A stretch of DNA of 33,393 nt, from the IMG/VR virus record IMGVR_UViG_3300014910_000001; one strand, given 5' to 3'. Source of the stretch: an uncultured virus (IMG/VR IMGVR_UViG_3300014910_000001) (Duplodnaviria > Heunggongvirae > Uroviricota > Caudoviricetes). The notes beneath the pieces are model-generated. The model worked only from the letters and a program-made list of their open reading frames with translations, did no database searches and was not told where the DNA came from. This document shows positions 666-23,113 of the stretch, one piece after another. Position 1 is the stretch's first letter. Each line of letters begins with the position of its first letter. A program made the position numbers and the translations under genes.

Positions 666-3600
666 AGAATTTCCAGGAATTAAACCAGATTATTGACGCA
701 ATTGAGCATGCCAGCCGTGAACAACTAAAGGAAATTGCTCTTATTCGTCAGGGAATTTCAAAACTACACCCTTCTCAACCTTTGAATAACCGCCAAGATA
801 CTACAGGGATGCGTGTTACAAGATCCCTTTATAGGAGCGGATACGAAGGAAGAAAAGAACAAAACAATCATAAAATTGACGTTTCAAAAGACAAAAATAA
901 AACAGAAAATGAAATAATTTCACCTACACAAAATAAAGTCCCTTCAAGAGTTAAAAAAACACGCGTAAAAGATGGAAAATCACCTTTAGAAGGTAATAAA
1001 AATAAAGATTCTGTATCTTTAGATGACTGGAGGCAGTCTAAAGGCATATTAAATGAAGAAAAATTACCTTTTAAAGGTAATAAAAAGGTTAAATTGAGTG
1101 TTTTCGGTGGCGTTTCAAGCGTCAGAAATGTACGTTCTGTTCGTCAGTCGAAAGCTGATACAGAAGTGGACTCTGATAGCCCAACGGCAGAGGGAAAAAC
1201 ACCTGGTCGTGATGCTGGAGGCCGCTTTAAAGCACGTACAGATTCTGCCGCTGCGTCAGCTGCAACTCAGGAAAAAAATGCGCGTCGCGCTGAGCAAAAA
1301 CAGCAGCAGGGATTTTTCCGATCACTGGGGAGCATGCTGGAATCTGCCACTGAAACGAACAGCGATAGTATGTCTTCAGGCGCAGACATTGCTGGCACGG
1401 CTGCTGGTGGTCCACTCTGGATGATGGGTAAAGGCATGTATGACATTTCTGCCGAAGTCGGTAAGAACGTCGTTACGCTAAAAAACTTCATGCAGGGTAA
1501 AACGGAAGGCAACGCTGCGGTGAAAATGGAGCCTCCATTAATTCATCCACCTGTAACTACCGAAGCCAGAACGCCACCAGCAATCGGTAAGACAAAATCC
1601 GCAGACGGTTTTAAGAACGCTCAACAGGCTAAGGCTATCCAGGTCACGCAGGAACAAACCAAAGTTATCGCCGCCAATGACGATCGCATTGTGGATGCCT
1701 TGGACGACGTGCGCGAGGAAGTTAAAAAGCTGTCTCACACGTCCAGCAAAGGCGCTGGCGGGCTGATGGACTCGCTGATTCCGGGTAAGCGTAAACGCCG
1801 CGGCCGTAAACGCGGACCTCTGTCAGCTGCTGCTGATGTGGCTGATATAGCCGGAGATCTGCTGCCGAACGGTAAAGGCAAGCCGGATGCCTCTAACCCC
1901 AAGCCAAAACCGAAAAAGAAAGGCCTATTGGCAAAGGCAATGGAAGTGCTGAAAGGCGGCAAAAAGGCGGCAACGGTCGCCGGTGCAGCGGCCACAACTG
2001 CTGCTGCCGGTGCAACTATTGCCGCTGGCGGTGTGACTGGAAAAGAACTGTCTAAAGCTGGCGAGAAAGCTACTCAGACTGCAGCTGAGAAAACAACGGA
2101 AAAGGGCGGGCTGAAGGTTGCAGGTAAAGTCGCTGGTAAAACTGCGCTTAAAGCGATCCCATTGGTCGGGACCGTTATCGGCGCGGGCATGGACGCATAC
2201 GAAGGGTATAACGACACAGACGGCCAGCAGAGAGCCTTTGGTCTTAAAGAAGGCGATACCGTCAGCAGCAAGCAGAAGAGCGAGTACACCGCCGCCAACG
2301 TGCTGAATATGGGCGGGCTGGTATCTGGTGCATCCGGCCTGCTGGCGTCCGGCGCTTCTGAGCTGGGTATGAACGGGGTTGCGAAATCACTCACGTTTGA
2401 TACCGGCGACATTGCGAAAGGTCTGGATACCGGGCTGGGTAAAGTGGGCGACATGTTCAGTGCCTTCTCAACCAGCGCTTCAGGCGCCTATGACAAGCTG
2501 ACCGGCACCAGCGCGGAGCAGACCAAAGCGATCACCGATGGCACCACGAAAACCGTCACAGCTATAAACCGCCTCGGTACACAGCTGCAGGGTGGCGAGT
2601 GGGGCGAGGACGGCGTAGGTACGCAGGGTAAAAGCACCGCAGATTATGCCGACGTGGCACAGAACAGCATTGGCGCAGATCTCAATGTTGGCGGTGCAAA
2701 TGCTAAGGTCCGTTCCTTCCGTAACAACAACTTTGGCAACCTGAACTATGTGGGACAGGAGGGCGCAAGCCTGGAGGCCAAAAACGGCAAAGGTGAGGCA
2801 AGGTTTGCCAAGTTCAACACGCCGGAGGAAGGGTTCAGGGCGCTGGCGAACCAGCTGACAAGCTATTCAGAAGGCACCTCTAAAGCCGCCGGTTACAAGA
2901 AGCTGAATACCGTGCAGGACATTATCAAGCTGTACGCGCCGGAGAGTGAAAACAACACGTCGCAGTACGTGGATTCGCTTTCGAAAAAGCTGGGCGTGCG
3001 TGGTGATCAGCAGCTGGACCTTAAAGATCCCAAAGTCATGACGCAGATGATGCGTGGCATTGCCACCATCGAGGGCGGCAACCCGCAGGTCACGAACGAT
3101 TTCATGATGAACGCCATTGGCCACAATGAAAATGGTAAATGGGTCGGCGGGAAATTTAGCGATGAATCCCTGAAATCTGTGAATGAAGCGCGTGCGAAGC
3201 AGGGGCAGGGACCTATTGCAGCAGACTCGCTTTATTCTGCTGGCGAGAAGGTGAAACTGACAGCGGGCGCGGTGGCACCCGCCGCCGCACTGGCACCAAT
3301 TTCCGCACCTGTGACAGCACCCGCAGTAGCAGTGCCAGCAGTGCCAGCAGTCGCCCCAACAGCGCCCACGGTCTCGCAGGTTGCTGCAGCAAAGGAAGCC
3401 GACAAGAACAAGCCAGCCAGCGGCGCAGTAGAGAAAATCAAACACGCCGGCGCTGGCGCATGGAGCCAGGTCAAAGCGCTTAATGAGTGGGCTGATGGAA
3501 AAGTGCAGGGCGCAACTGAATCACTGGGTGTGGCCGGTATGTCCCGTAAACGTCCCACCAGCGGCCTGTCCCTGCCTGCTGGCGAATCACTCCCGGCAGG

Positions 3601-4342
3601 CCTCCAGCTGGCCGCGCTGTCACCGGACCAGATAGCCAGCCGTTCACGTCCCGCCGTCACATCACACGTTTCAACCGACAGCGTGCGCGCCCGTCCGGGC
3701 TCTGCCACGTCTGATACGCCGATCACTGTGGCCAGTACCCGTTCACCAGCTGCAGCACCAGAAGCCAGCGGCCTATTTGATCGCATGCTCGGCGGTGCAA
3801 GAGACGGGGTAAACGCCGTCAGCGCCTCGATAATGCCCGCGATCAGCGACACCTTTAGTCAGACTCTTGGGGGCTTCAGCGGCAACGACATGGTAAGCAG
3901 CGTGCTGGACCAGGCAGGCATTTCTGATCCGGGCATTCTGCGCGCCATTTCTCCGCTTACAAGCAAAGCTGGTGGCTGGCTCGACAGCGGAACAGAGACG
4001 CTGGCCAGCGCTGGTAAATCCTATCTGAACGGCGGCAGTGCGGCGCAGACAAGGCCTGCACAGCAGCCGCTTCTGAATCACCCGGCACAGATCCAGAACG
4101 TGACCGATCTTCCGCGCAGCGGCATGCGCCCGATGATGAGTGGCGATACCAGCAATCACGATCAGGACATGCTCAAGGAGCTGAAAGGTATGCGCACCCA
4201 GCTGGAAGCACTGCTGGGCGTCACGAAGAAAAAAAGCGACACCGCGCCGGACAAAGTGGTTAACACGGCGCAACCGGCACCCCGCACATCATCAACCCTG
4301 AGCATCAGTGATCCGGCGCTCAACGACCTACTGCAGGACTAA
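662..4342 (+). CDS. sit: Tape measure / structural injection transglycosylase (Sit-like)
   Basis: 1226 aa Ala/Gly-rich protein with an internal lysozyme-like domain (RNNNFGNL...RFAKFNTPEEG...YAPESENNT...IATIEGG). P1 synteny pmgB-sit-pmgA-bplA. Confidence 0.8.
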   Translation: MKNFQELNQIIDAIEHASREQLKEIALIRQGISKLHPSQPLNNRQDTTGMRVTRSLYRSGYEGRKEQNNHKIDVSKDKNKTENEIISPTQNKVPSRVKKTRVKDGKSPLEGNKNKDSVSLDDWRQSKGILNEEKLPFKGNKKVKLSVFGGVSSVRNVRSVRQSKADTEVDSDSPTAEGKTPGRDAGGRFKARTDSAAASAATQEKNARRAEQKQQQGFFRSLGSMLESATETNSDSMSSGADIAGTAAGGPLWMMGKGMYDISAEVGKNVVTLKNFMQGKTEGNAAVKMEPPLIHPPVTTEARTPPAIGKTKSADGFKNAQQAKAIQVTQEQTKVIAANDDRIVDALDDVREEVKKLSHTSSKGAGGLMDSLIPGKRKRRGRKRGPLSAAADVADIAGDLLPNGKGKPDASNPKPKPKKKGLLAKAMEVLKGGKKAATVAGAAATTAAAGATIAAGGVTGKELSKAGEKATQTAAEKTTEKGGLKVAGKVAGKTALKAIPLVGTVIGAGMDAYEGYNDTDGQQRAFGLKEGDTVSSKQKSEYTAANVLNMGGLVSGASGLLASGASELGMNGVAKSLTFDTGDIAKGLDTGLGKVGDMFSAFSTSASGAYDKLTGTSAEQTKAITDGTTKTVTAINRLGTQLQGGEWGEDGVGTQGKSTADYADVAQNSIGADLNVGGANAKVRSFRNNNFGNLNYVGQEGASLEAKNGKGEARFAKFNTPEEGFRALANQLTSYSEGTSKAAGYKKLNTVQDIIKLYAPESENNTSQYVDSLSKKLGVRGDQQLDLKDPKVMTQMMRGIATIEGGNPQVTNDFMMNAIGHNENGKWVGGKFSDESLKSVNEARAKQGQGPIAADSLYSAGEKVKLTAGAVAPAAALAPISAPVTAPAVAVPAVPAVAPTAPTVSQVAAAKEADKNKPASGAVEKIKHAGAGAWSQVKALNEWADGKVQGATESLGVAGMSRKRPTSGLSLPAGESLPAGLQLAALSPDQIASRSRPAVTSHVSTDSVRARPGSATSDTPITVASTRSPAAAPEASGLFDRMLGGARDGVNAVSASIMPAISDTFSQTLGGFSGNDMVSSVLDQAGISDPGILRAISPLTSKAGGWLDSGTETLASAGKSYLNGGSAAQTRPAQQPLLNHPAQIQNVTDLPRSGMRPMMSGDTSNHDQDMLKELKGMRTQLEALLGVTKKKSDTAPDKVVNTAQPAPRTSSTLSISDPALNDLLQD

Positions 4343-12929: not shown

Positions 12930-13536
12930 GACCTACGTCCTGCTTAGCTTTGACGAGCTCAACGAAAAAGGGCTGGCTAAGCTGAAAAAGGCGATCGCCA
13001 CCAGCGGCTTTGAGGTGGCCAAAATCACCGCCGCCGGCGCAGCCCGGAAAAAGGATGGTGTACCCACTAAAACCTTCAGTCTCACCGGTATGGATGAGCA
13101 GGTCATGACCGTGCAGGTCAACGACAGCGGCGACATTTCCGGTCTGAAGCTGAACGGCAAAAACGTGCCGTTTACCCACGTCACCACGATCCCCGATCTC
13201 GGACGCCAGCTGGCCGCGCTGTTTAAGAAAGGCTCAACGGCATTTCAGAAGGCGCTGGCACGCAAGATGGCACGCGCCGCCGCCAGCAAGGATGACTCAC
13301 CGCAACCAAAACGCGGCGTGAAATCATCGGTGCAGCTGCTGGCCGAAGTGCGCCAGCAGCGTGACGCCTACAAAGCGGGGATCGCGGAAACCCAGGCGAA
13401 GGCAGAGCAGCTGACGCGGGATGCCGATGCGGCACAGAAAAACGCGGACAGCTTACAGACCGAGCTTAATCAGGAGCAGGCGATCACCCGCCAGCTGAAA
13501 GAGCAGATCGCCCAACTGGAAGAGGCAGCAGAATGA
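12916..13536 (+). CDS. hdf: Hdf, DarA_N-domain antirestriction/head protein
   Basis: FDELNEKGL..LKKAI...KKDGV.TK...VNDSGDI...LNGK..P (DarA_N-like) followed by a coiled coil. P1 order lydB-hdf-darA. Confidence 0.8.
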   Translation: MSNPKTYVLLSFDELNEKGLAKLKKAIATSGFEVAKITAAGAARKKDGVPTKTFSLTGMDEQVMTVQVNDSGDISGLKLNGKNVPFTHVTTIPDLGRQLAALFKKGSTAFQKALARKMARAAASKDDSPQPKRGVKSSVQLLAEVRQQRDAYKAGIAETQAKAEQLTRDADAAQKNADSLQTELNQEQAITRQLKEQIAQLEEAAE

Positions 13537-15728
13537 ATGAGATTTTAAGCAACCGCATGGTGCTGGACCTGCGGAGCCACACACCGGGCGCAATGCTGGC
13601 GCAGGCGGTTTACGACGGCCTGATGACCGGCAGCAGCGCGGATATGATGCTGGAAAGCGCCACTATCGACGATATCGATCACACCTACCTGGGAAATGAA
13701 AGCCTGGTGCCGGGTGCGATGTTTGAGGCTATCAGCACCGAGCGCATGCGTCTGGCGCAGACCATGCGCGCCTTCGTGAAGGCCTTAAACCGTGGCCTGA
13801 ATGGAACCAATATCAGCGCTGGTACGGACGATGCAGGCGCGGATACTACCGGGCAGAAAACTGTGGGCGGCGCGGTAATTGGCAAAGTGCGCCGTGTGGC
13901 CAGCATACCGGTTATGAGTGCGCTAATCTCGTTATCAGACGGGCAAAGCGTGTCGCTGGTGTTCCACTCTCCAACTGCTGACAACGGTAAGATCCGCAAT
14001 CAGGATACGCTGGTGGCGTTCCAGTTCCTGATCAACAAGCGCGACGTGACGCACATCGTGGCCCCGATTGGCGGACGGGATGTGTCGCTGCAGCAGGTCA
14101 CGCAGGCGCTTTCAAACCTGATTGAGAAGAACAGTGGCAAATTCACAAAGCAGAAGGACGCCCAGACTAAGCTGCGCGCCGAAGTGGAAACTACCCAGGC
14201 GGAAACTGAAAAGCTGGCAGAGCAGCAATCGGCACTACTGGAAGTGGTGGACACACAGACCGCACGCGTGCAGACGCAGCAGGACAATGAGCAGATGCTG
14301 CGCGGCAAAGTCGCAGCCCAGCGCCAGATTAATGCCGACCTTACCGGCCAGTTGGCGGCACTGCAGCAGGCGAAAGCCAGTGAGCCTGAAAGCACGGACA
14401 CTTTCAGCGATCGCACTATCCAGGTTAAAGCGCGCCTGAACATAGACGGACAGGCGACGCTGAGCAACGCCGCGACGGTCCGCTATCACAGCTATGACCA
14501 GGACGGCGAGCTTGAAGGCAAGGTGATCATCACCGAAGCGGACGGGACCACGTTTGAAATGCCGTCCAAATCCAGCCAGGGCGCGGATATGGGTAAAGCG
14601 GCTACCAAACTGCTGAAGGCCTACCGCACCGGCGCGGCGGATAAATACCGTGTCAGTGCTGAGCCAGTTTCGACGCAGGAGCCGCAACCTGAACCGACGC
14701 CACAGCCTGAACCGGCGCCGCAACCAGAACCAGAACCACAGCCAGAGCCAGAGCCACAACCCGATCCTGTTACACCCGCAGCCGTCTGGCGTTATGCGCT
14801 GGTAAACCGGCCAGTAGGTATCGGCGCGGTACCGCCTGAATATGCCTCTGTTGCAGGCCAGCCAGCAGACGGCCAGCCATACAGCGGCGTTGCGCGTAAC
14901 GGCATCATTTCCTACGACCGTCCACTTACCGACAAAGAGATTGCTGACTTTGAGCTGAAGCTGATCCCGACGCATGCGGATCTCGATACGCTGGCCGTAA
15001 CCGTGGCCGACAAGATGAGCGATTACGCCGCGCAGTATCTGGAAATGTCCGCAGAAGACCCTGACACCTACGCCAAACAGGTACGCATGGTTGCCCGTAA
15101 AAACCTGACCGGCGTGGCGTATCCGGAAGGGGAAGACCTGACCTACTTCAATCAGGCCATTAATGCCAGATTGCAGACACTGGCAGCAGGTCAATCAAAG
15201 CCAGAAGAGACCGACATGACTGACGATCGTGAAAATACTGACCCGTTCTGGATTGCGGCGAAACGCTTGGGTGATCTCGTAGGCTGGGCGTCTGACCTGG
15301 TAAATGCTTGGGCTGAAGCACTGGGCTATGGCAGTGAGCAAATGAAGCAGGCAGCGGACTACGTGGAGGCTAACCAAAGTCCTGAGTATCTGAAGGCAGT
15401 AGAGACGGCGATGATCACCGGCAAGCGTATTCCGCTGGTGGAGGAACTTAGCACTACTGAGCCAGAGCCAGAGCCGCAGCCACAGCCGGAGCCAGTGCCG
15501 GAAGCAGACACCGAAGCGCAGAAGGCGATTGATTACCTTCAGGGGCTGACTTCGCTCGATACCGACGATATGGACGTGATCCGCACTGGCCGCAGTCAGG
15601 TGCGCGAAGCTATTGCCGCGCTGACGGCCGCGGGCGTGTTCGATGAAAACGAATCACTGGTTAATGACGCCGTGCAGCACCTGAGTGATCTGCTGGTGGC
15701 GGTGCAGCGTAATGGGGTGGCCGCATGA
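13533..15728 (+). CDS. darA: Defence-against-restriction protein DarA
   Basis: 731 aa. LSDGQSVSLVFHSPT...LVAFQFLINKRDVTHIVAP N-terminal domain, coiled coil, PE-rich linkers and DarA_C-like YALVNRPVGIGAVP...GIISYDRPLT. Confidence 0.85.
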   Translation: MNEILSNRMVLDLRSHTPGAMLAQAVYDGLMTGSSADMMLESATIDDIDHTYLGNESLVPGAMFEAISTERMRLAQTMRAFVKALNRGLNGTNISAGTDDAGADTTGQKTVGGAVIGKVRRVASIPVMSALISLSDGQSVSLVFHSPTADNGKIRNQDTLVAFQFLINKRDVTHIVAPIGGRDVSLQQVTQALSNLIEKNSGKFTKQKDAQTKLRAEVETTQAETEKLAEQQSALLEVVDTQTARVQTQQDNEQMLRGKVAAQRQINADLTGQLAALQQAKASEPESTDTFSDRTIQVKARLNIDGQATLSNAATVRYHSYDQDGELEGKVIITEADGTTFEMPSKSSQGADMGKAATKLLKAYRTGAADKYRVSAEPVSTQEPQPEPTPQPEPAPQPEPEPQPEPEPQPDPVTPAAVWRYALVNRPVGIGAVPPEYASVAGQPADGQPYSGVARNGIISYDRPLTDKEIADFELKLIPTHADLDTLAVTVADKMSDYAAQYLEMSAEDPDTYAKQVRMVARKNLTGVAYPEGEDLTYFNQAINARLQTLAAGQSKPEETDMTDDRENTDPFWIAAKRLGDLVGWASDLVNAWAEALGYGSEQMKQAADYVEANQSPEYLKAVETAMITGKRIPLVEELSTTEPEPEPQPQPEPVPEADTEAQKAIDYLQGLTSLDTDDMDVIRTGRSQVREAIAALTAAGVFDENESLVNDAVQHLSDLLVAVQRNGVAA
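14678..14766 (+). repeat. Pro-Glu/Gln low-complexity coding repeat in darA (second tract near 15458-15502, third in ddrA near 15890-15931)
   Basis: EPQPEPTPQPEPAPQPEPEPQPEPEPQPDP encoded by GAGCCA/GAACCA/CAGCCA units. Confidence 0.8.
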
Positions 15729-16163: not shown

Positions 16164-17540
16164 ATGCTGAACGAGAAATTACGAAATCTGCTGAGCGACG
16201 CTGGCAGCATATTTGCCCTGATTGGGCTGGTGGGCTCACTGCGTAAAGCGCAGACCATAACAGGGCGATCGTCATACGTTGTCACCGGCAAAGGGCAGGA
16301 AGTGAAGACCGCGTTTAAGGTGGTGGATGCGCGCCACCTGATTATTTCCAACAACCTCGACGGCACCATAAACCCGCTTTTCCCGGCTGAACTACAGCCA
16401 CGCGACCGCACCCGCCTGACCAGCAAAGTGCAGGTATCCAAAATCGCGGGCAACCTTCGACCGGCAAAGTTGACCGATTCAGGCATGAGCAGCCACGGCG
16501 CGCCAATTGTGGGCGCTGATAATGTGGTTGAGTCAGGCAATGGCCGTTCGATGGGGATCACCCGTGCCTATGAGCAGGGGCAGGCCGACGAGTATCGCCA
16601 GTACCTAATTAAACACGCTAAAGACTATGGCCTGAAGGCATCCGATATCGCGCAGATGGATATGCCGGTACTGGTGCGTGAGCGTATTACGGACGTTGAT
16701 CGTGCGCAGTTTGCGAAAGATTCCAACCTCTCCGATTTGCAGGAAATGGCGGCAAGTGAGAAAGCCTTTGTTGATGCCGAAATGCTCGACGAACGTCTGA
16801 TGGCCATCTTCAATCCGTCCGACGACGGCAACCTTCTCGCGCGCTCAAATGACGGCTTTATCCGGGCCTTCATGAAAGAGATTGGCGACACGGCGACGGC
16901 AGGCCTGCTGACCGAAGACGGGCGCCCGACGAAGCAACTGATTGACCGTATGCAGAATGCGATCTTTGCCCGCGCCTACAAAGACGAACGCCTGGTTAAG
17001 CTGGTATCTGAAGAGCCGGATCCCGAAATGCGCAATATCCTGACAGCGCTCAACACGGCGGCAAGCGAGTTTGCACAGATGCAGATGCTATCCGGAGACG
17101 TTCATCGGCAGGCCGTCACCGGGCTGGTGGACGGGGTGCAGTCAGTTGATGGTCTCGATCAGCAGGCAATCGCCGCGCTGCAGGATGCTATCAAGCTGGT
17201 TCGCCAGGCCAAAGATAGCGGGCAGGCCATACAGGAAGTGCTGGCACAGCAGGGGCTGTTTGAGGAATCCAGCAAAGAGGCCGAAGCGCTGGCGCTGTTT
17301 ATCGTGGCAAACAACCGCAGCGCAAAACGTATCGGGGCCGCGTTTAAAAAGATGGCTCAGAAGATCAACGACGAGCTGATACACCAACAGCAGGCGATGG
17401 GGGATATGTTCGGCGGCGGTGAGCTTACGCTGAATGACGTGCTAACGGCTGTATCAGGAGAAATTGAGGAGGAATTTGGTGAAGGGAAGGGGCTAAGCTT
17501 TGCCATTTTCGAGTCTGTCAGCGCGCAGGCAACGAACTAA
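16164..17540 (+). CDS. ddrB: DdrB-like protein with a ddrB-ParB domain
   Basis: ELQPRDR...GAPIVGADNVVESGNGR...PVLVRER is the ddrB-like ParB family pattern. P1 synteny after ddrA. Confidence 0.75.
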   Translation: MLNEKLRNLLSDAGSIFALIGLVGSLRKAQTITGRSSYVVTGKGQEVKTAFKVVDARHLIISNNLDGTINPLFPAELQPRDRTRLTSKVQVSKIAGNLRPAKLTDSGMSSHGAPIVGADNVVESGNGRSMGITRAYEQGQADEYRQYLIKHAKDYGLKASDIAQMDMPVLVRERITDVDRAQFAKDSNLSDLQEMAASEKAFVDAEMLDERLMAIFNPSDDGNLLARSNDGFIRAFMKEIGDTATAGLLTEDGRPTKQLIDRMQNAIFARAYKDERLVKLVSEEPDPEMRNILTALNTAASEFAQMQMLSGDVHRQAVTGLVDGVQSVDGLDQQAIAALQDAIKLVRQAKDSGQAIQEVLAQQGLFEESSKEAEALALFIVANNRSAKRIGAAFKKMAQKINDELIHQQQAMGDMFGGGELTLNDVLTAVSGEIEEEFGEGKGLSFAIFESVSAQATN

Positions 17541-17560
17541 TTTTAATGGTTCATAATATG

Positions 17561-17584
17561 CGTCAGCTCAGACTTGAGCTGACG
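17561..17584. repeat. Perfect 10-bp inverted repeat at the left edge of island 1
   Basis: CGTCAGCTCA-GACT-TGAGCTGACG. Confidence 0.8.
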
Positions 17585-17617
17585 GTTTTCACTGGCTACA
17601 CATCCTTAAATCTGACC

Positions 17618-17644
17618 GTCTGCTTTGAGCGAAAAGCGGACATT
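17618..17644 (-). repeat. Palindromic boundary repeat, left copy
   Basis: The reverse complement AATGTCCGCTTTTCGCTCAAAGCAGAC matches 22998-23024 at 23 of 27 positions. Confidence 0.75.
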
Positions 17645-18009
17645 GCTAACAGCGTTATGAGTGAATCAACGGAGAGTTGGTCAGGTACCCTTAGTACTTT
17701 ATGCGCTGCTTACTAGTCATGGTGCGTTCCAAATGGATGATAAAGAATAGAATGCCGAATGAAGATCAATATTGGCCGCAACAAAGTGAGTTCGCATTTC
17801 GTGGGTAGGACCAGAGAGCTACAGCGGAAAAATGTGGAGATTTTAGTTATAAGCTTTGTTCACTGTTCCTAAATGACAGTTTCAATTAAGCGGTGAGCGT
17901 AATTATTGAAATTTCATTGACATCCTCATGTACCTGCCCGTTAAACCGTGGATTTTTTATACATTACAATATAATATTCTCTGATAAATCGCTCAGCGTT
18001 GGTAACCCA

Positions 18010-18345
18010 TTGCAGATTTTTTGTGACAGTTCCGAACTCAGAGATTCAGTTGAGTTTAAAGAAGCAGGGATAAATCTGTTCGGTGATGCCGTAGCTGCAA
18101 AACTGCGCGTGCGGTGTGCTGATATCTGGTCTTCAGCATCGATAGCTGAGCTTCCGAGTTTTCTTAAAACAGAGTTTTTATGCGAAAATGGATGCGATTA
18201 CGTTACAATTAACCTTAGCGAAGGGGTTAAGATGTACTTTGTAAATGGTCATCTCAAACCACCCCGTCAGGCAGACAATTCACTTGATTGGGGTCGGGTA
18301 ACTCGGTTGAAATTGGTTCATATAGGCGAAGATTATGGTTTCTGA
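18010..18345 (+). CDS. HigB/RelE-like toxin ('killer suppression' family)
   Basis: Probable TTG start at 18010 inside the 17893 ORF. LFGDAVAAKLRVRCADI..SASIAELP...INLSEGVKMYF...LDWGRVTRLKLVHIGEDY resembles the HigB-like partners of HigA-ImmA proteins. Overlaps the next gene. Confidence 0.6.
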   Translation: MQIFCDSSELRDSVEFKEAGINLFGDAVAAKLRVRCADIWSSASIAELPSFLKTEFLCENGCDYVTINLSEGVKMYFVNGHLKPPRQADNSLDWGRVTRLKLVHIGEDYGF

Positions 18346-19417
18346 TAACGGATTTAACACGGATTGGGTGTCAGCCCCCGGAGATACCATAATAGACCTC
18401 ATGGACGAACTTGGTTTCAACGAAGAAGAGCTCAGTAAAAGAGTTGGCCTTTCCATGATTAAAAGTCGTGAGTTGATTTCTGGTGAACTTATTCTCACTG
18501 AGAAGATTGCCAACAAACTTGAATCTCTCTTCAATGTCAGCACGACTTTCTGGCTCAGTCGTGAAAATAAATATCGCCAACATAAAGATGCCATCATTCG
18601 CCAAAATAATGAATGGGTTCAGTCTCTGCCTACGTCAGATATGAGTAAACTGGGTTGGATCCCGAAGGGCCTGAGTGGTAATAAAAAAGTAGAGTATTGC
18701 CTGAGTTTTTTCGGCGTTTCATCTGTACCTGAATGGTTTAATTATTATAAAAGTAAACAGACTGCTATAGCTTTCAGAAAATCTGAAGCTTTCAGAACGG
18801 AAGAAATGGCCGTAATAACTTGGCTCAAGAAAGCTGAATATATTTCGCGAAAACAGAGAACTTATGCATGGGATAAGGAAATACTTAAAGGCAGCCTAGA
18901 AGCTTTAAGAAAACATTCTCTTGAAGCTGATCCCAAAGTATTTCTTCCTGCGATACGCAGCATACTCGCTGACGCTGGTGTAGCGCTTGTGATCCTGCCA
19001 ACGCCAACAGGTTGTCCAGCAAGCGGCGCTACCTGTTTTTTTGAGTCTGGCAAAGCGACACTAATAATGAGTTTTCGGTATCTCAGAGACGATCATTTCT
19101 GGTTTACGTTGTTCCATGAGATTGGCCATCTGGTTCTGCACAACTGTGAACAGCACCGCATAGAAGGAATGAGTGGCCTTTCTGAAAAAGAAGAACAGGA
19201 AGCAAACGAGTTTTCCAGCAACGTCCTGATTCCCCCAGCATACCGTGCAGAGTTTGACACGCTGAGTGGGCGGAATTGGAAAAATATTATTAAATTTGCT
19301 AGGAAAATTGGTGTATCAAAAGGGATAGTGCTGGGGCAGTTACAGCACGCCCAAAAAATCCCCTTTGATCATTTTGCCAAATTCAAAGTCAAATATAACC
19401 GTGAAGATCTGTCCTGA
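18335..19417 (+). CDS. HigA-type HTH antitoxin fused to an ImmA/IrrE (M78) Zn metallopeptidase
   Basis: N-terminal SAPGDTI.DLMDE...ELSKRVG...IANKLESLF.VSTTFWL (HigA HTH). C-terminal DDHFWFTLFHEIGHLVLH (HExxH) and EEQEANEFS. Confidence 0.85.
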   Translation: MVSDNGFNTDWVSAPGDTIIDLMDELGFNEEELSKRVGLSMIKSRELISGELILTEKIANKLESLFNVSTTFWLSRENKYRQHKDAIIRQNNEWVQSLPTSDMSKLGWIPKGLSGNKKVEYCLSFFGVSSVPEWFNYYKSKQTAIAFRKSEAFRTEEMAVITWLKKAEYISRKQRTYAWDKEILKGSLEALRKHSLEADPKVFLPAIRSILADAGVALVILPTPTGCPASGATCFFESGKATLIMSFRYLRDDHFWFTLFHEIGHLVLHNCEQHRIEGMSGLSEKEEQEANEFSSNVLIPPAYRAEFDTLSGRNWKNIIKFARKIGVSKGIVLGQLQHAQKIPFDHFAKFKVKYNREDLS

Positions 19418-19419
19418 AA

Positions 19420-20358
19420 TCATCCGCCAAAGTAAACGTGGCTAGAGGGTGATTTCTGCCAGTTGCAAAGAGCATCCTCAAGAATTTGCATTTCAAGCAA
19501 TCCCATGTCCATGAAGGCGCTGAGCCTCGCCAGAAGATCGTCTAATACCTTATAATTGGCCGCATTTCTCGCCTCACCGTAAAATAGAAGGTTTGCACCA
19601 TCCAGAGGTCCTGTTGCCCCGTTCAGATACAGCGTTCCCGGCTTGGCATCAATAATGCAGAACTTGATGAGCATTGTCAGAAAGTCGAACCTTCCAGCCC
19701 GCCCAAATGACAAAACAGCCCTCATGCTCCGGTAAAGAATATCAAAGTACTCTTCCTGACTATTAGATGCGGCTTTGGCTTCAGCAAATCGCGCTTCGTG
19801 ACTACCTACGTTTCCTACCCACGCTACGTATGAGCTGATAACGCGTGGAAGGGGGCGCTTGCTGTCCGGTTTGAGGGATTCGTACTTTCTATGGTTCCCA
19901 AACCTTCTTTTCTGACCGTCTGCCAGCATCTGGCGATAGCAGCCCTCATACCAGGCGTGAAAGGTGTCCACTTCCGCAACCACTTTCTCCCAAGTCCATA
20001 CATCGCCACCGAGTCCACCATAAATATCGGCGCACAATTGCCAACCATATTTCAGATGTTTGCCAAAGTGGGTGGACAGGAAAATAAGCCAGCACGCCTC
20101 ATCTACATTCCCTTCATAAACATGCAACCACGCAGCTCGTAGCGGATCAAAAATATCGCTGTGGGGATTTCCCCGAAGCGGGGATATCTTATTTCTACCA
20201 ATGGCTCCGACATACTCAATACGACGTTTGCTGTCGAGTATCTGTGCGGCGAGCGTTGTGATTTTGTCGGGGGTATCTAATCCCCTGAGCGGGATTTCGT
20301 GTGTACTGAACGATTCGAGCTGCTCTGAAATTTCATCAATTAGATCCTGTCGTTTCAT
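19420..20358 (-). CDS. Alpha-glutamyl/putrescinyl thymine pyrophosphorylase clade 3 (aGPT-PPlase3; HhH-glycosylase-related DNA base modification family)
   Basis: Motifs DSKRRIEYV, DIFDPLRAA, DEACWLIFLSTHFGKH, FGNHRKYESL, FGRAGRFDFL, GATGPLDGANLLF and QILEDALCNWQKSP. Probable ATG at 20358 after a GAGGGAG RBS; alternative GTG at 20376. Confidence 0.75.
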   Translation of the reverse strand: MKRQDLIDEISEQLESFSTHEIPLRGLDTPDKITTLAAQILDSKRRIEYVGAIGRNKISPLRGNPHSDIFDPLRAAWLHVYEGNVDEACWLIFLSTHFGKHLKYGWQLCADIYGGLGGDVWTWEKVVAEVDTFHAWYEGCYRQMLADGQKRRFGNHRKYESLKPDSKRPLPRVISSYVAWVGNVGSHEARFAEAKAASNSQEEYFDILYRSMRAVLSFGRAGRFDFLTMLIKFCIIDAKPGTLYLNGATGPLDGANLLFYGEARNAANYKVLDDLLARLSAFMDMGLLEMQILEDALCNWQKSPSSHVYFGG

Positions 20359-20366
20359 TTTCTCCC

Positions 20367-21317
20367 TCACAACCACTCAAGATAAATTTTGTATGACTGA
20401 TTTTGCAATTTCCCGGCAATGGACCGAGCAGCTGGCAAGTCCTTGTCTTTTTTGCATCTGAATATCGCCAGCATACGAAGGACATCTTTCCAGTATTCAC
20501 TCAGGTTTAGCGTATCAATGTCTGGAATGTCGCCCTCTCGGATGCGTTTCTCTGCATCAACAATGATGCATAAGTAGTGATTTATATCCTCTGTGGGCAT
20601 TGCCACCATAACTGGTGCAGATGGCGCATAACCCTCTTTAAGCGCAGCTTCGATGAGGGGAATATCCTCGGTATAGATGTGCAGACTTGCCGCATAATGG
20701 CGATAAACGCCCAAATTTAAACCGAGGGTTTTTGCAATCATTTCCTGAAGCATCGTGAATGCAAATATGTCGTGAACCAGTCCTGCTCGCGCATCGTTAG
20801 AGCGCATGAATGTGAACATATCGAGGGAATCATTCCTAATCGCAAACTGGAGCCCGACAGTACAGGGGACATCAACGAAAGGATGGGCTATATCGTTTGC
20901 GTCAAACAGCTGTATGGCTGCTCGCCTAGATGTGTTGCGTTTTTTTAAAAGCCGGATGACATTCTCAATCTGGTTAATTTCATTCTTGGTACCAAAGAGA
21001 CGAGGTCCGTAAGCGCCATTAATTGTGCCATCACTTTCTGCAGAATCCTGGTATTTTGAGATGTAATAGCGAATAGATTCAACCTCGTCACTGCCTGATA
21101 GGTACCACATCAACTCACCCAGACAGGTGAATATTTTACCTCTGGATTCTGTTCTGCTAATCCGGCAAATCGGATTGCTCAAAATGATGTGTGTACCCAG
21201 AATCTCTTTTGTCGGTCCCCGTGTTGTTTCAACAGGAACACCATTTGACAGGATATTTTCAAACACAGCCCGCATAACATCATCAATCGTGTTTTTCTCA
21301 ATTTCCATATTTTTCAT
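20367..21317 (-). CDS. Thymidylate synthase-fold enzyme, probably a (d)CMP hydroxymethylase/methylase type
   Basis: ELMWYLSG, AYGPRL, SRRA, catalytic DVPCT, MRSND.. GLVHD and SLHIY motifs. Asp rather than Asn at the substrate-specificity position. Confidence 0.85.
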   Translation of the reverse strand: MKNMEIEKNTIDDVMRAVFENILSNGVPVETTRGPTKEILGTHIILSNPICRISRTESRGKIFTCLGELMWYLSGSDEVESIRYYISKYQDSAESDGTINGAYGPRLFGTKNEINQIENVIRLLKKRNTSRRAAIQLFDANDIAHPFVDVPCTVGLQFAIRNDSLDMFTFMRSNDARAGLVHDIFAFTMLQEMIAKTLGLNLGVYRHYAASLHIYTEDIPLIEAALKEGYAPSAPVMVAMPTEDINHYLCIIVDAEKRIREGDIPDIDTLNLSEYWKDVLRMLAIFRCKKDKDLPAARSIAGKLQNQSYKIYLEWL

Positions 21318-21766
21318 CCAGATAAGAGTACGTGGACAGTCTGTTAGACATCAGTCAGGAGTGAGAATAATCCTAATTATTTGTTATACATTTAGTCTGT
21401 ACAATTTGTCTACAGATTTGAGCTTTTGAGAAAAAAAGTGGCTGGTGTAGGCTAAGTTTACTGTGATGAAGAAATTGGTTATTTGATCCTAGCCACAGCA
21501 TTCGGCTCGTTAACTAAGAGAGAATGCAAATTCTTGTCAACAACTCGTATTTTGGTACTCGAAGCCGTATAACTAGTCATATCTTTTCCTTAGTTTTATC
21601 ACCTGCATTGAACCACACCTCCCTAAGCGAATTTAATAGTCCCCTCAAGTTTCCTTGGTCAGCCATGTCGTCAGCCAAACTGCATTAACCGACAAGCTGG
21701 TAAGCTCCGCCCAACATCGAAGAGGTACGTTTTTAGCCTGACAGCTTAGGTTTATATGGATAGATA

Positions 21767-21786
21767 CCGCTTTTAGCACGGCAGAC
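21767..21786 (+). repeat. Degenerate internal copy of the palindromic boundary repeat
   Basis: CCGCTTTTAGCAC--GGCAGAC versus CCGCTTTTGGCACAGAGCGGAC at 23003. Confidence 0.5.
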
Positions 21787-22075
21787 ATCAGACAGAACTA
21801 GCGGAGCGCTGTGAGCCATAAACGGGCTAATATATGTTAGTTAACAGCAACAATGTGCTAGCTTCTCAAGCTTTAGATAATAACGCCGTATTGGTTAAGA
21901 AAAAACTAAGATGCTGCAATTAAAAATTTTGGAAGTAAACAATTGCATTTTGACGATTAGTGAGATAGAAAAGTCAATATGAAAATAGATCATTGGCAAC
22001 CCTACTACTAGCATTACTTTTATTTCATTGCAACCAAGCAATGCTCCCTTATTTGAAATATTATGAGATCCTTAG

Positions 22076-22957
22076 ATGACTAAATATAACAAAAACCTAG
22101 AGTCTGGGTGGTATAAATTTCAAGAAGAAATTTGCGAGCATTTTAAAAGCATAGGCGCTAGCGCTAAGACAAACGTTACAGTAGATGGGGCAAGAGGAAG
22201 CTCAGATATAGATGTAGTAGTGGAGTCAAAATATCTTGGCACGGATTTCAAATGGTTTGTAGAAGCTAAATATTGGAATAGTAATGTAACCAAGGAAGTT
22301 GTTCATGCGTTTTCGACAGTAATTCAAAATACTGGAGCTGATAGAGGTTTTATTATATCCAAAAATGGGTTCCAGACCGGTGCCATAGAAGCTACCAAGC
22401 ATACAAATATAAGCTTATATACTTTTGATGAGTTTAAGAAAAAAACAATCCACTTGGTACAATCCAATATATTAAAATCCTGTTTAAATAGAGCCATTCT
22501 AACTAGCACAAGGTATTGGGGGCACTCAAAGAAAATAAGAATAAAATATGAACTTAGATATGATCTTTTTGACGACAGAGAGATACTTTCATGTGCAATG
22601 ATTCTTATCATTGTCACTGATCTAATTATAGACGAAGATATAAGTTATCCGTTAGCCGTTTCAAGATATACAGGAATTCAAGCAGATGAAATCAACAGCT
22701 TTCATGAGCTTATGCATTGGCTGAATTCAAGTTTAAATGAGTTAGACCGTAGAATATTAGATGCTGAAATAGCAATGAAGAAAAATAATGATTTCAACCC
22801 TGTATATGAATATTTCACGCCTGATTTAATCAGATTGTGTGCGAAAAAGAAAATTGATAAATTTTTCGACTATAGTTTTCTTCCAGAAGCTGATAGAGAA
22901 TTAATGATTAAGCACAAAAATAAGGTAGACGAATATAGACGCAGCCAAAATAATTGA
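22076..22957 (+). CDS. Mrr-like (PD-(D/E)xK) restriction endonuclease domain protein
   Basis: WYKFQEEI..F...DIDV...FVEAKYW...V.KEVVHAF...GADRGFIISKNGFQTGA fits Mrr_cat. AT-rich gene with an unknown C-terminal half. Confidence 0.8.
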   Translation: MTKYNKNLESGWYKFQEEICEHFKSIGASAKTNVTVDGARGSSDIDVVVESKYLGTDFKWFVEAKYWNSNVTKEVVHAFSTVIQNTGADRGFIISKNGFQTGAIEATKHTNISLYTFDEFKKKTIHLVQSNILKSCLNRAILTSTRYWGHSKKIRIKYELRYDLFDDREILSCAMILIIVTDLIIDEDISYPLAVSRYTGIQADEINSFHELMHWLNSSLNELDRRILDAEIAMKKNNDFNPVYEYFTPDLIRLCAKKKIDKFFDYSFLPEADRELMIKHKNKVDEYRRSQNN

Positions 22958-22997
22958 CATCCTATAAGCCAAAAGAGAAGTTAGAGCTATTGAACGG

Positions 22998-23024
22998 AAT
23001 GTCCGCTTTTGGCACAGAGCGGAC
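22998..23024 (+). repeat. Palindromic boundary repeat, right copy
   Basis: AAT-GTCCGCTTT-TGGCAC-AGAGCGGAC; an imperfect palindrome, inverted relative to 17618-17644. Confidence 0.75.
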
Positions 23025-23062
23025 TATAGGTGCCTAATGCCCGATATGAGTTAACACACAAT

Positions 23063-23085
23063 GGCCGCGCAATGCGGCCTTTTTT
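23063..23085 (+). terminator. Rho-independent terminator insulating the endolysin gene from island 1
   Basis: GGCCGCG-CAA-TGCGGCC followed by T6. Confidence 0.7.
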
Positions 23086-23092
23086 CCACTGG

Positions 23093-23113
23093 AAATTACA
23101 AACTCCATACAGT
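23093..23113 (+). promoter_or_regulatory. Putative late promoter of the endolysin gene
   Basis: AAATTACAAACTCCATACAGT; shared late motif. Confidence 0.55.

Follow-up and report, generated by a model that had tools for sequence, protein, structure and literature searches.

A conserved four-gene cassette that couples a predicted cytosine-type thymidylate synthase homologue to an aGPT-Pplase clade 3 protein, found on a P1-like phage-plasmid

The stretch of DNA analysed here, IMG/VR record IMGVR_UViG_3300014910_000001 from an uncultured virus (33,393 nucleotides (nt) in all, hereafter the window), belongs to a P1-like phage-plasmid, as judged by PHROGs and Pfam searches of its genes. An initial annotation, made from the sequence alone, had flagged two adjacent genes of this window as a candidate nucleotide-modification system, and both are indeed present on the minus strand: a homologue of thymidylate synthase (TS), which matches PF00303 Thymidylat_synt (1.4e-27, 96.9 bits vs. 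a cut-off of 24.3), and a partner protein of aGPT-Pplase clade 3, the clade named by the initial annotation, which matches PF18746 aGPT-Pplase3 at 2.4e-94 and PF18724 ADDT at 6.3e-66. Convergent to these two genes lies a gene encoding an Xre-type helix-turn-helix (HTH) domain fused to an M78 metallopeptidase (HTH-M78), the facing stop codons being 2 nt apart, and the first 11 nt of the HTH-M78 gene are shared with a small gene (Table 1). The likely start codons of both enzyme genes, at 21308 and 20358, are supported by the RefSeq annotation of a 99.9% identical plasmid and by homologue alignments; on these starts, the two genes are 8 nt apart and do not overlap.

Table 1. Features of the cassette and its surroundings (positions are those of the window)
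Feature	Position	Strand	Basis
Low-GC cargo island (cassette and Mrr gene)	17550..23050	.	Drop in GC content; comparison with sibling plasmids
Small protein, 111 aa, start TTG 18010, weakly HigB/RelE-like	18010..18345	+	Start from alignment with 65 homologues
Xre-type HTH fused to ImmA/IrrE (M78) metallopeptidase, 360 aa, HEIGH at residue 261	18335..19417	+	Pfam, PADLOC
aGPT-Pplase clade 3 / ADDT-family protein	19420..20376 (GTG 20376, 318 aa); likely start ATG 20358, 312 aa	-	Pfam, model
TS-fold enzyme, predicted dCMP C5-hydroxymethylase	20367..21317 (ATG 21317, 316 aa); likely start ATG 21308, 313 aa	-	Pfam, PDB match
Intergenic region between TS gene and divergent Mrr gene, 758 nt	21318..22075	.	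No open reading frame with a family match
Mrr-family (type IV-like) restriction endonuclease, 293 aa	22076..22957	+	Pfam Mrr_cat 9.1e-16

The cassette occurs in 414 of 185,579 species genomes (contigs of one genome per species) from at least eight phyla, and the gene neighbourhoods of the best 80 of these 414 confirmed relatives (the genome loci) were compared by clustering of open reading frames (ORFs). The TS homologue lies upstream of the partner on the same strand in 78 of the 80 genome loci, and the two misses have less than 160 nt of upstream sequence. The HTH-M78 gene, convergent with the enzyme genes, is likewise found in 78 loci, with an HExxH motif in 77 of the 80 ORFs of its cluster, and a small protein of ~110 aa is encoded just upstream of the peptidase gene in 65. 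A 265-aa protein, usually encoded between the TS and partner genes, is present in 28 loci, followed by DUF4031 (12 loci, variable position), an integrase (7 loci, flanking within 6 kb), an 88-aa protein (5 loci, beside enterobacterial copies), an Mrr nuclease (5 loci, flanking), and a small Xre HTH protein (5 loci, variable position), while all remaining genes vary between the 80 loci. Viral loci give the same picture, the TS gene being found in 24/24 and the HTH-M78 gene in 23/24. In addition, a ~94% relative recovered from public sequencing runs shares exactly 17937-21545 with the window and has different flanks, consistent with a four-gene module. The unit is thus a conserved four-gene cassette that recurs across phyla, with the order TS > (265-aa protein >) aGPT3 > < HTH-M78 < small gene. 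The two-gene operon of the initial annotation holds as a pair, whereas as a complete unit it does not, the pair being half of the cassette; likewise, the HTH-M78 linkage argues against the toxin-antitoxin-like pair being independent, and its earlier treatment as a separate neighbour has to be given up.

The TS-fold enzyme contains the strings DVPCT, with the catalytic Cys152, and MRSNDARAGLVHD, with Asp183 (codon 20769-20771), just where the initial annotation had placed them. Its best match in the PDB is the cytidine monophosphate (CMP) 5-hydroxymethylase MilA (1.2e-43 over residues 36-302), whereas the best true TS reaches 2.3e-16. The dCMP hydroxymethylase T4 gp42, to which the enzyme had been compared initially, is not among the 60 best PDB matches listed of the 119 below 0.001. 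The comparison stands for the cytosine-type Asp, and MilA takes the place of T4 gp42 as the closest characterised relative. The enzyme is also not a bona fide ThyA: none of the NCBIfam ThyA equivalog models reaches its cut-off (106.5 bits vs. 174.55 for the best, 27-77 vs. 108-427 for the others), and Asp183 replaces the Asn. The alignment with MilA pairs the nucleophile Cys152 with Cys155, Glu68 with Glu68 (catalysis), His213 and Tyr215 with His216 and Tyr218 (sugar binding), and Asp183 with the cytosine-specifying Asp186, the position of which is that of Asn177 in E. coli TS according to the MilA study (PMC5175136).

MilA (PDB 5jnh/5b6d) and T4 gp42 thus have in common with the window enzyme the TS fold, the catalytic Cys, Glu, His, and Tyr, and the Asp at the Asn177 position, and the alignment to MilA takes in its C-terminal extension. 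In contrast, at the two positions that determine the preference for ribose or deoxyribose, MilA has Lys133 and Ala176 whereas the window enzyme has Arg131 and Ser173. The same study reports that the MilA A176S/K133R double mutant shifts its preference from CMP to deoxycytidine monophosphate (dCMP), and that Ser and Arg occupy these positions in T4 CH and TS (PMC5175136). Cys152, Arg131, Ser173, Asp183, and His213 are invariant in 71/71 homologues from related loci, as is Arg172-Ser173-Asn174-Asp175 (RSxD), and Tyr215 is conserved in 70/71, which supports the cytosine-type assignment of the initial annotation. The enzyme therefore carries the signature of the deoxy cytosine hydroxymethylases, i.e., Asp at the Asn177 position together with Arg and Ser at the MilA K133 and A176 positions, and its closeness to MilA combined with these residues leads us to predict that it is a dCMP C5-hydroxymethylase. 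We infer that the product would be hydroxymethyl rather than methyl only from the nearest characterised homologue.

The aGPT-Pplase clades were reportedly defined by Iyer et al. in 2013. The family of the partner comprises 3,259 proteins with E values of 0.001 or better, nearly all of them 305-320 aa long, and shows 49 invariant columns across 24 sequences of 43-80% identity. A search for longer or fused forms gave one 666-aa integrase fusion on a single contig, which was set aside as a probable gene-calling artefact. Among the conserved positions is the motif Q297-x-x-E300-D301-x-x-C304-x-W306, in which E300 is invariant and C304 is found in 23 of the 24 aligned sequences. A profile of the partner gave 0 hits against the PDB sequences. 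An AlphaFold model of the partner (pLDDT 92.7) was compared with known structures by VIA-align, and the top match is the 5-PmdU glycinyltransferase gp46 of PaMx11 (8z2m; Z 9.7, 226 residues aligned), with ~20 DNA glycosylases of the helix-hairpin-helix (HhH) class (AlkA, Mag1, NTHL1, EndoIII, OGG, MutY) further down at Z 8.0-5.5. These Z values lie in the "middling" range for helical proteins, and the fold is assigned because the list is consistent and agrees with the Pfam match; it is gp46-like and HhH-glycosylase-like.

The resemblance to gp46 extends to the motif. An hhalign comparison of the partner family with gp46 aligns QILEDALCNWQK with QEVETILCKWKS, pairing E300 with gp46 Glu243, D301 with Thr244, and C304 with Cys247. 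In the gp46 work, Glu243 and Thr244 are described as holding a metal on the thymine O4 and Cys247 as clamping the base (PMC11472151). For the clade-2 enzymes, the Cys and a neighbouring Glu are reported to be essential, with a reaction route through attack at C6 and an exocyclic methylene at C5 (PMC8989533). On the alignment of E300 and C304 to gp46 and the essential Glu and Cys of clade 2, clade 3 retains the catalytic motif. The invariant Asp301, which stands in place of the gp46 Thr244, may read the N4-amino group of cytosine and in this way mirror the change from Asn to Asp seen in the TS-like enzyme, as judged from the aligned residues.

We note the following differences between the window partner and the clade-2 enzymes, which are amino-acid:DNA transferases (M6 gp51, ViI gp247, and PaMx11 gp46/PUGT), with which it has the ADDT superfamily and the HhH-glycosylase-like fold in common. 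First, it belongs to clade 3 and has Asp301 where gp46 has Thr244. Second, it is not accompanied by a 5-hydroxymethyluracil DNA kinase. Third, its co-enzyme is cytosine-type rather than a deoxyuridine monophosphate hydroxymethylase. Fourth, it occurs in bacterial chromosomes and prophages instead of lytic phages. The cassette also does not look like a phage thymidine-hypermodification cluster: there is no Walker-A motif in 17540-23060, no kinase cluster recurs in the 80 loci, and the TS homologue is cytosine-type. The window also has neither a MilB-type glycosidase nor a dCTPase (for deoxycytidine triphosphate, dCTP), kinase, or glucosyltransferase of the T4 type.

The other half of the cassette resembles a known defence module. 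The HTH-M78 protein matches Peptidase_M78 (Pfam, 3.4e-08), PD-Lambda-2_B (PADLOC PDLC03982, 7.9e-30, residues 15-341), and capP (5e-12), with a weak HigA/antitoxin match in NCBIfam. For the small protein, three weak leads point to a HigB-like toxin. First, Pfam HigB-like_toxin matches 2 of 26 members, with a best E of 0.0018. Second, a PDB profile search matches the "killer protein" 6f8s at E 0.69. Third, its Atlas score against a RelE/ParE cluster is 0.93. None of the 26 members has a PADLOC hit, PD-Lambda-2_A included. In PD-lambda-2 (Vassallo et al. 2022, PMC9519451), component B is likewise an Xre-HTH/M78 peptidase, and the small gene that overlaps it on its upstream side codes for a HigB-like protein; the small protein of the window has no PD-Lambda-2_A match. 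The A/B pair is presented in the same work as a validated defence module, in which the toxicity of the Xre-peptidase B is neutralised by the HigB-like A, and defence also requires a third gene (PMC9519451). This component C, which is related to a P4 antitoxin, is not in the window and does not recur in the 80 loci; in the window cassette, its place is taken by the two nucleotide- or DNA-modifying enzymes.

Several accessory genes found near the cassette bear on its chemistry. The 265-aa protein is inserted between the two enzyme genes in at least 25 of the 28 loci that have it, and has no Pfam match. Its model (pLDDT 93.8) gives 21 Foldseek matches at E 0.001 or better, with a best value of 8.2e-05, and the top 50 all belong to the uracil-DNA glycosylase (UDG) superfamily (family 4 UDG, UdgX, TDG, SMUG1), which identifies a UDG fold. 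Its strings GLNPSNRE and NHNIQSS lie at what we take to be the positions of UDG motifs A and B. In two Bacteroidota loci (L054, 4637-4939; L067, 4601-5002), a NUDIX gene (PADLOC candidate family PDC-S07) immediately precedes the TS gene, and a NUDIX domain is also found in a 300-aa neighbour at a third Bacteroidota locus (L041, 8372-9274). The 87-88-aa gene beside Enterobacterales copies (L112, 12468-12731), that of E. coli included, is annotated in RefSeq as a "MazG-like family protein" and gives nothing in Pfam. By analogy, the NUDIX and MazG-like genes may encode dCTP hydrolases that feed the TS-like enzyme (dCTP to dCMP); in T4, gp56 supplies dCMP from dCTP. The absence of a kinase or dCTPase noted initially holds for the window, whereas relatives do carry candidate dCTP-hydrolysing genes. 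DUF4031 genes (L018, L032, L040, L063, and others among the 12 loci) either precede the TS gene or separate the two enzyme genes, and in some loci a small Xre HTH gene accompanies them.

The Mrr gene of the window, divergent from the TS gene, has homologues (37-39% identity over ~155 aa) that adjoin the cassette in its five loci from distant hosts, i.e., an Opitutaceae metagenome-assembled genome (MAG), two Rubrivivax genomes, a Sphingomonas MAG, and a Burkholderiales MAG, and at least three of the five (L047, L051, L053) have it in the same divergent position as the window. Mrr is thus an occasional accessory or neighbour of the cassette. A contig of Candidatus Pantoea communis (L002) with a 98% identical cassette has a GmrSD_N/Schlafen-AlbA2 protein nearby (1841-3631) in place of Mrr; we take both of these neighbours to belong to modification-dependent nuclease families.

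The cassette is sporadically distributed and scarce among viruses. Among complete E. coli genomes, 237 of 5,426 (4.4%) carry it, and all 245 places are chromosomal. With tblastn, 50,697 phage records gave no homologue at 1e-5, and IMG/VR holds only 24 loci among 2.9 million viral contigs. To characterise the flanks, the two ORFs closest to the cassette on either side, counting those of 100 aa or more, were compared with PADLOC, which gave matches for 20 of 150 flanking ORFs at 1e-5 and for a further 10 of 125 at 1e-10. The matches include restriction-modification (RM) enzymes of types I, II, III, and IIG, type IV enzymes, LmuA (Lamassu), HmaC (Hma), SduA (Shedu), AbiEii (AbiE), SoFic, and DRT. 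The copy of E. coli strain 317 lies among a dGTPase-family gene, insertion sequence elements, a type I RM system, and a SIR2 gene.

A defence role for such domains is already in print as a prediction, in which aGPT-Pplase is named among predicted, unvalidated defence domains (PMC13092281). Table S10 of that study, on DefensePredictor, lists the TS homologue of the E. coli cassette (WP_000174035.1) as a "predicted novel defense gene" with a mean log-odds of 7.6, and the partner accessions are absent from the supplements searched (PMC13092281). One TS-containing relative, DS-4 ("NTTI"), is validated: it protected E. coli from phage, and consists of a TS, an adenylate kinase, a base-hypermodification protein, and a TIR protein (PMC13092281). 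DS-4, the aGPT-Pplase-containing system predicted in that study, and the window cassette are all bacterial and combine a divergent TS with phage-type hypermodification enzymes. However, the DS-4 TS is uracil-type, with Asn in the supplement sequence (PMC13092281), whereas the window enzyme has Asp, and none of the deoxynucleoside monophosphate (dNMP) kinase, 5-hydroxymethyldeoxyuridine-kinase-like protein, and TIR protein of DS-4 is in the window. The four-gene definition, the cytosine/deoxy signature, the Glu/Cys motif with Asp301, and the UDG-fold, NUDIX, MazG-like, and Mrr accessories are not in the literature found.

In the window, the cassette is carried by the P1-like element together with genes for a DarA-like "released upon infection" protein, ddrA, a ddrB-ParB protein, a lysozyme, a head-processing protein, and tail genes. 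The flagged region is 99.9% identical to its counterpart on a 94-kb Pantoea agglomerans plasmid. In the nearest provirus record (G001 C1, 118,644 bp), the cassette is present twice, at 20451-21290 and 113795-114634; the spacing of 93,344 bp implies that this record is longer than one genome of ~93 kb, either as a concatemer or through circular overlap. The cassette and the Mrr gene lie in a region of lower GC content, which in 1-kb windows is 0.34-0.48 across ~17.5-23 kb vs. 0.56-0.59 upstream. In sibling Pantoea plasmids, the corresponding site, between ddrA/ddrB and the lysozyme gene, holds a full-length 970-aa ddrB and a 100-aa gene (L110, 760-3672), an unrelated 569-aa gene without a Pfam match, or a Vat acetyltransferase with other DNA. 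This variation identifies the site as a cargo-exchange spot; what the comparison supports of the "defence hotspot" of the initial annotation is variable cargo at one site of P1-like Pantoea sibling plasmids. The ddrB-ParB gene of the window (16164-17540) encodes 458 aa vs. 970 aa in a sibling, and from this comparison the island appears to have taken the place of the 3′ half of ddrB, a Dar anti-restriction gene, together with the 100-aa gene.

An element of ~62-71 nt just to the left of the cassette (17613-17683) is 88-94% identical to sequences of six Erwiniaceae/Klebsiella plasmids in which nothing is annotated there, and also borders the cassette of the ~94% relative from public runs. Rfam gave no match at this element, which may be a recombination or insertion site, and an Rfam scan of 17400-23100 gave a sub-threshold snoRNA match only. 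The DarA-like protein (13533-15728) has long acidic Pro/Glu/Gln repeats (PEPQPEPEPQ...) at two places. The intergenic region upstream of the TS gene presumably houses the promoters of both the TS operon and the Mrr gene, and TCTGTAgacaaattgTACAGA was observed there (21362-21382, minus-strand reading), a 6-nt inverted repeat with a 9-nt spacer some 55-75 nt upstream of the TS start, which is a candidate operator. Repeats common to the promoter regions of the enzyme operon and of the operon of the small and HTH-M78 genes in the window are short and unconvincing. Four public runs labelled as RNA were compared with the region. One of these, a metatranscriptome (X17), gave four low-depth contigs of 152-251 nt that overlap portions of the genes for HTH-M78 and TS and of the stretch that precedes TS, and possible DNA carry-over means that it gives no evidence on expression; two others (X18 and X19) gave contigs of 20-34 kb from the ~94% relative and are therefore probably DNA.

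On this evidence, the reading that we consider most likely, tentatively and with a little less than even confidence, is that the cassette is an inducible system against phages (or other mobile genetic elements (MGEs)) built on cytosine C5 chemistry, and that it is horizontally mobile and carried here as phage-plasmid cargo. In such a system, the Xre-M78 protein and the small HigB-like protein would keep the cassette silent or harmless until infection or DNA damage. The TS-like enzyme would then convert dCMP and methylenetetrahydrofolate to 5-hydroxymethyl-dCMP (hm-dCMP), fed in some relatives by a NUDIX or MazG-like dCTP hydrolase. The clade-3 enzyme would flip a C5-substituted cytosine, with Cys304 attacking C6 and Glu300/Asp301 serving as the acid and reading the N4 amino group, and would replace or remove the exocyclic group, most likely in DNA. 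The resulting adduct or lesion would block phage replication, or would mark the DNA for glycosylases (the UDG-like protein) or type IV nucleases (Mrr).

A more specific version of this scheme, which we hold to be possible but on the unlikely side, is a "modify to destroy" immunity, in which hypermodification of the phage type would be turned by bacteria on the invading DNA. Upon infection, the cassette would flood replication with 5-hydroxymethyl-deoxycytidine, on which a cytosine-specific enzyme resembling the amino-acid:DNA transferases would, without a kinase step, make a bulky or labile adduct; as part of this version, the adduct would stall phage DNA metabolism or be excised by the UDG-like or Mrr accessories.

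Several observations weigh against the defence reading and its mechanism. Foldseek of the partner model against the PDB gives nothing at E 0.001 or better, and the hhalign match between the partner family and gp46 is weak (E 0.0085, probability 4.7%). No Walker-A motif is found in any frame of 17540-23060, which indicates that no P-loop kinase is adjacent, in agreement with the initial annotation. As hm-dCMP is a poor substrate of host dCMP kinase, its incorporation into DNA is uncertain. Moreover, the known family members require a phosphorylated hydroxymethyl as the leaving group, as described for clade 2 (PMC8989533). An operator common to the enzyme and regulator genes is unsupported, the longest k-mer shared by the regions upstream of the TS and small genes having a mean of 8.8 nt in 59 loci vs. 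8.3 nt in 400 mismatched-locus controls. The PADLOC matches in the flanks, 29 of 275 at 1e-10, are a raw rate without a matched control, and a few of them are generic ATPases or helicases. The cassette itself is not in PADLOC, and WP_000174035.1 is absent from the DefensePredictor table of tested systems (PMC13092281). The literature found on aGPT-Pplase reports no assay of clade 3 and no experimental work on the cassette, in keeping with the initial statement that no experimental function was known for clade 3.

Some of these points suit a defence at the level of nucleotides, in which dCMP would be trapped as hm-dCMP and the partner would either cleave the glycosidic bond of the free nucleotide, as MilB or QNG1 do, or derivatise it, leading to depletion of deoxycytidine precursors or to an inhibitory analogue, with the DNA unmodified; this too we regard as unlikely. 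MilA, the characterised enzyme nearest to the TS-like protein, belongs to a pathway in which an N-glycosidase is reported to act next on the hydroxymethylated nucleotide (PMC4081090). Besides this MilA/MilB analogy, action of the partner on a free nucleotide is favoured by three features. First, no kinase is present to raise hm-dCMP to the triphosphate. Second, QNG1/DUF2419, the queuine-salvage nucleotide glycosidase, which is HhH-like and acts on a nucleotide, ranks second and third in the VIA-align list of the partner (Z 8.3 and 8.1), and as such also counts against an action on DNA. Third, the NUDIX genes upstream of TS and the MazG-like genes of enterobacterial copies fit a drain from dCTP to dCMP. 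However, the window copy lacks such a nucleoside triphosphate hydrolase, and the partner has the Glu/Cys motif of the transferases, not a glycosidase signature. Action on DNA is favoured by the Pfam family and the best structural match of the partner, both of which are DNA-acting transferases, and by the UDG-fold accessory, which belongs to a superfamily of DNA glycosylases.

The cassette could instead serve its carrier, whether phage-plasmid or chromosomal island, by partly replacing or decorating the cytosines of the carrier DNA against restriction or CRISPR, an alternative with a rather small chance in our judgement. ImmA-like regulators often tie expression to MGE induction, and in the P1-like element the cassette displaces part of the Dar anti-restriction operon. 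Self-modification of this kind is described for the known family members in lytic phages (PMC8989533). In contrast, the scarcity of the cassette in the phage and viral collections, its exclusively chromosomal places in E. coli, and the integrases near only 7 of the 80 loci are not what a self-modifying element would predict. The window also lacks a dCTPase, a dNMP kinase, and a host-nuclease inhibitor, and the type IV-like Mrr adjoins the cassette in 6 of 81 cases, which is awkward for a self-modifier. Between defence and self-modification, the two options of the initial annotation, distribution and context lean towards defence. Finally, a MilA-like small-molecule pathway leading to a metabolite or antimetabolite derived from 5-hydroxymethylcytosine (5hmC), with an unrelated toxin-antitoxin-like pair, is very improbable: the enzyme is closest in sequence to MilA of mildiomycin biosynthesis, but the ribose-specifying Lys and Ala are replaced by Arg and Ser in all 71 homologues, and the 80 loci show no recurring methyltransferase, kinase, transporter, or other biosynthetic gene.

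Returning to the defence reading, the cassette is common in E. coli, compact, and directly testable in laboratory E. coli. Two enzyme families formerly linked to phage counter-defence appear here on the host side, with cytosine rather than uracil specificity. If the "modify to destroy" version were true, the partner would be the first such enzyme on cytosine, clade 3 would gain its first function, and the product would be a new kind of hypermodified cytosine; and if the clade-3 enzyme works on unphosphorylated 5hmC, a use in 5hmC labelling chemistry would be possible. Solving the cassette would assign a function to aGPT-Pplase clade 3, would perhaps reveal a new DNA or nucleotide modification, and would show how an Xre-peptidase module of the PD-lambda-2 type is coupled to different effectors.

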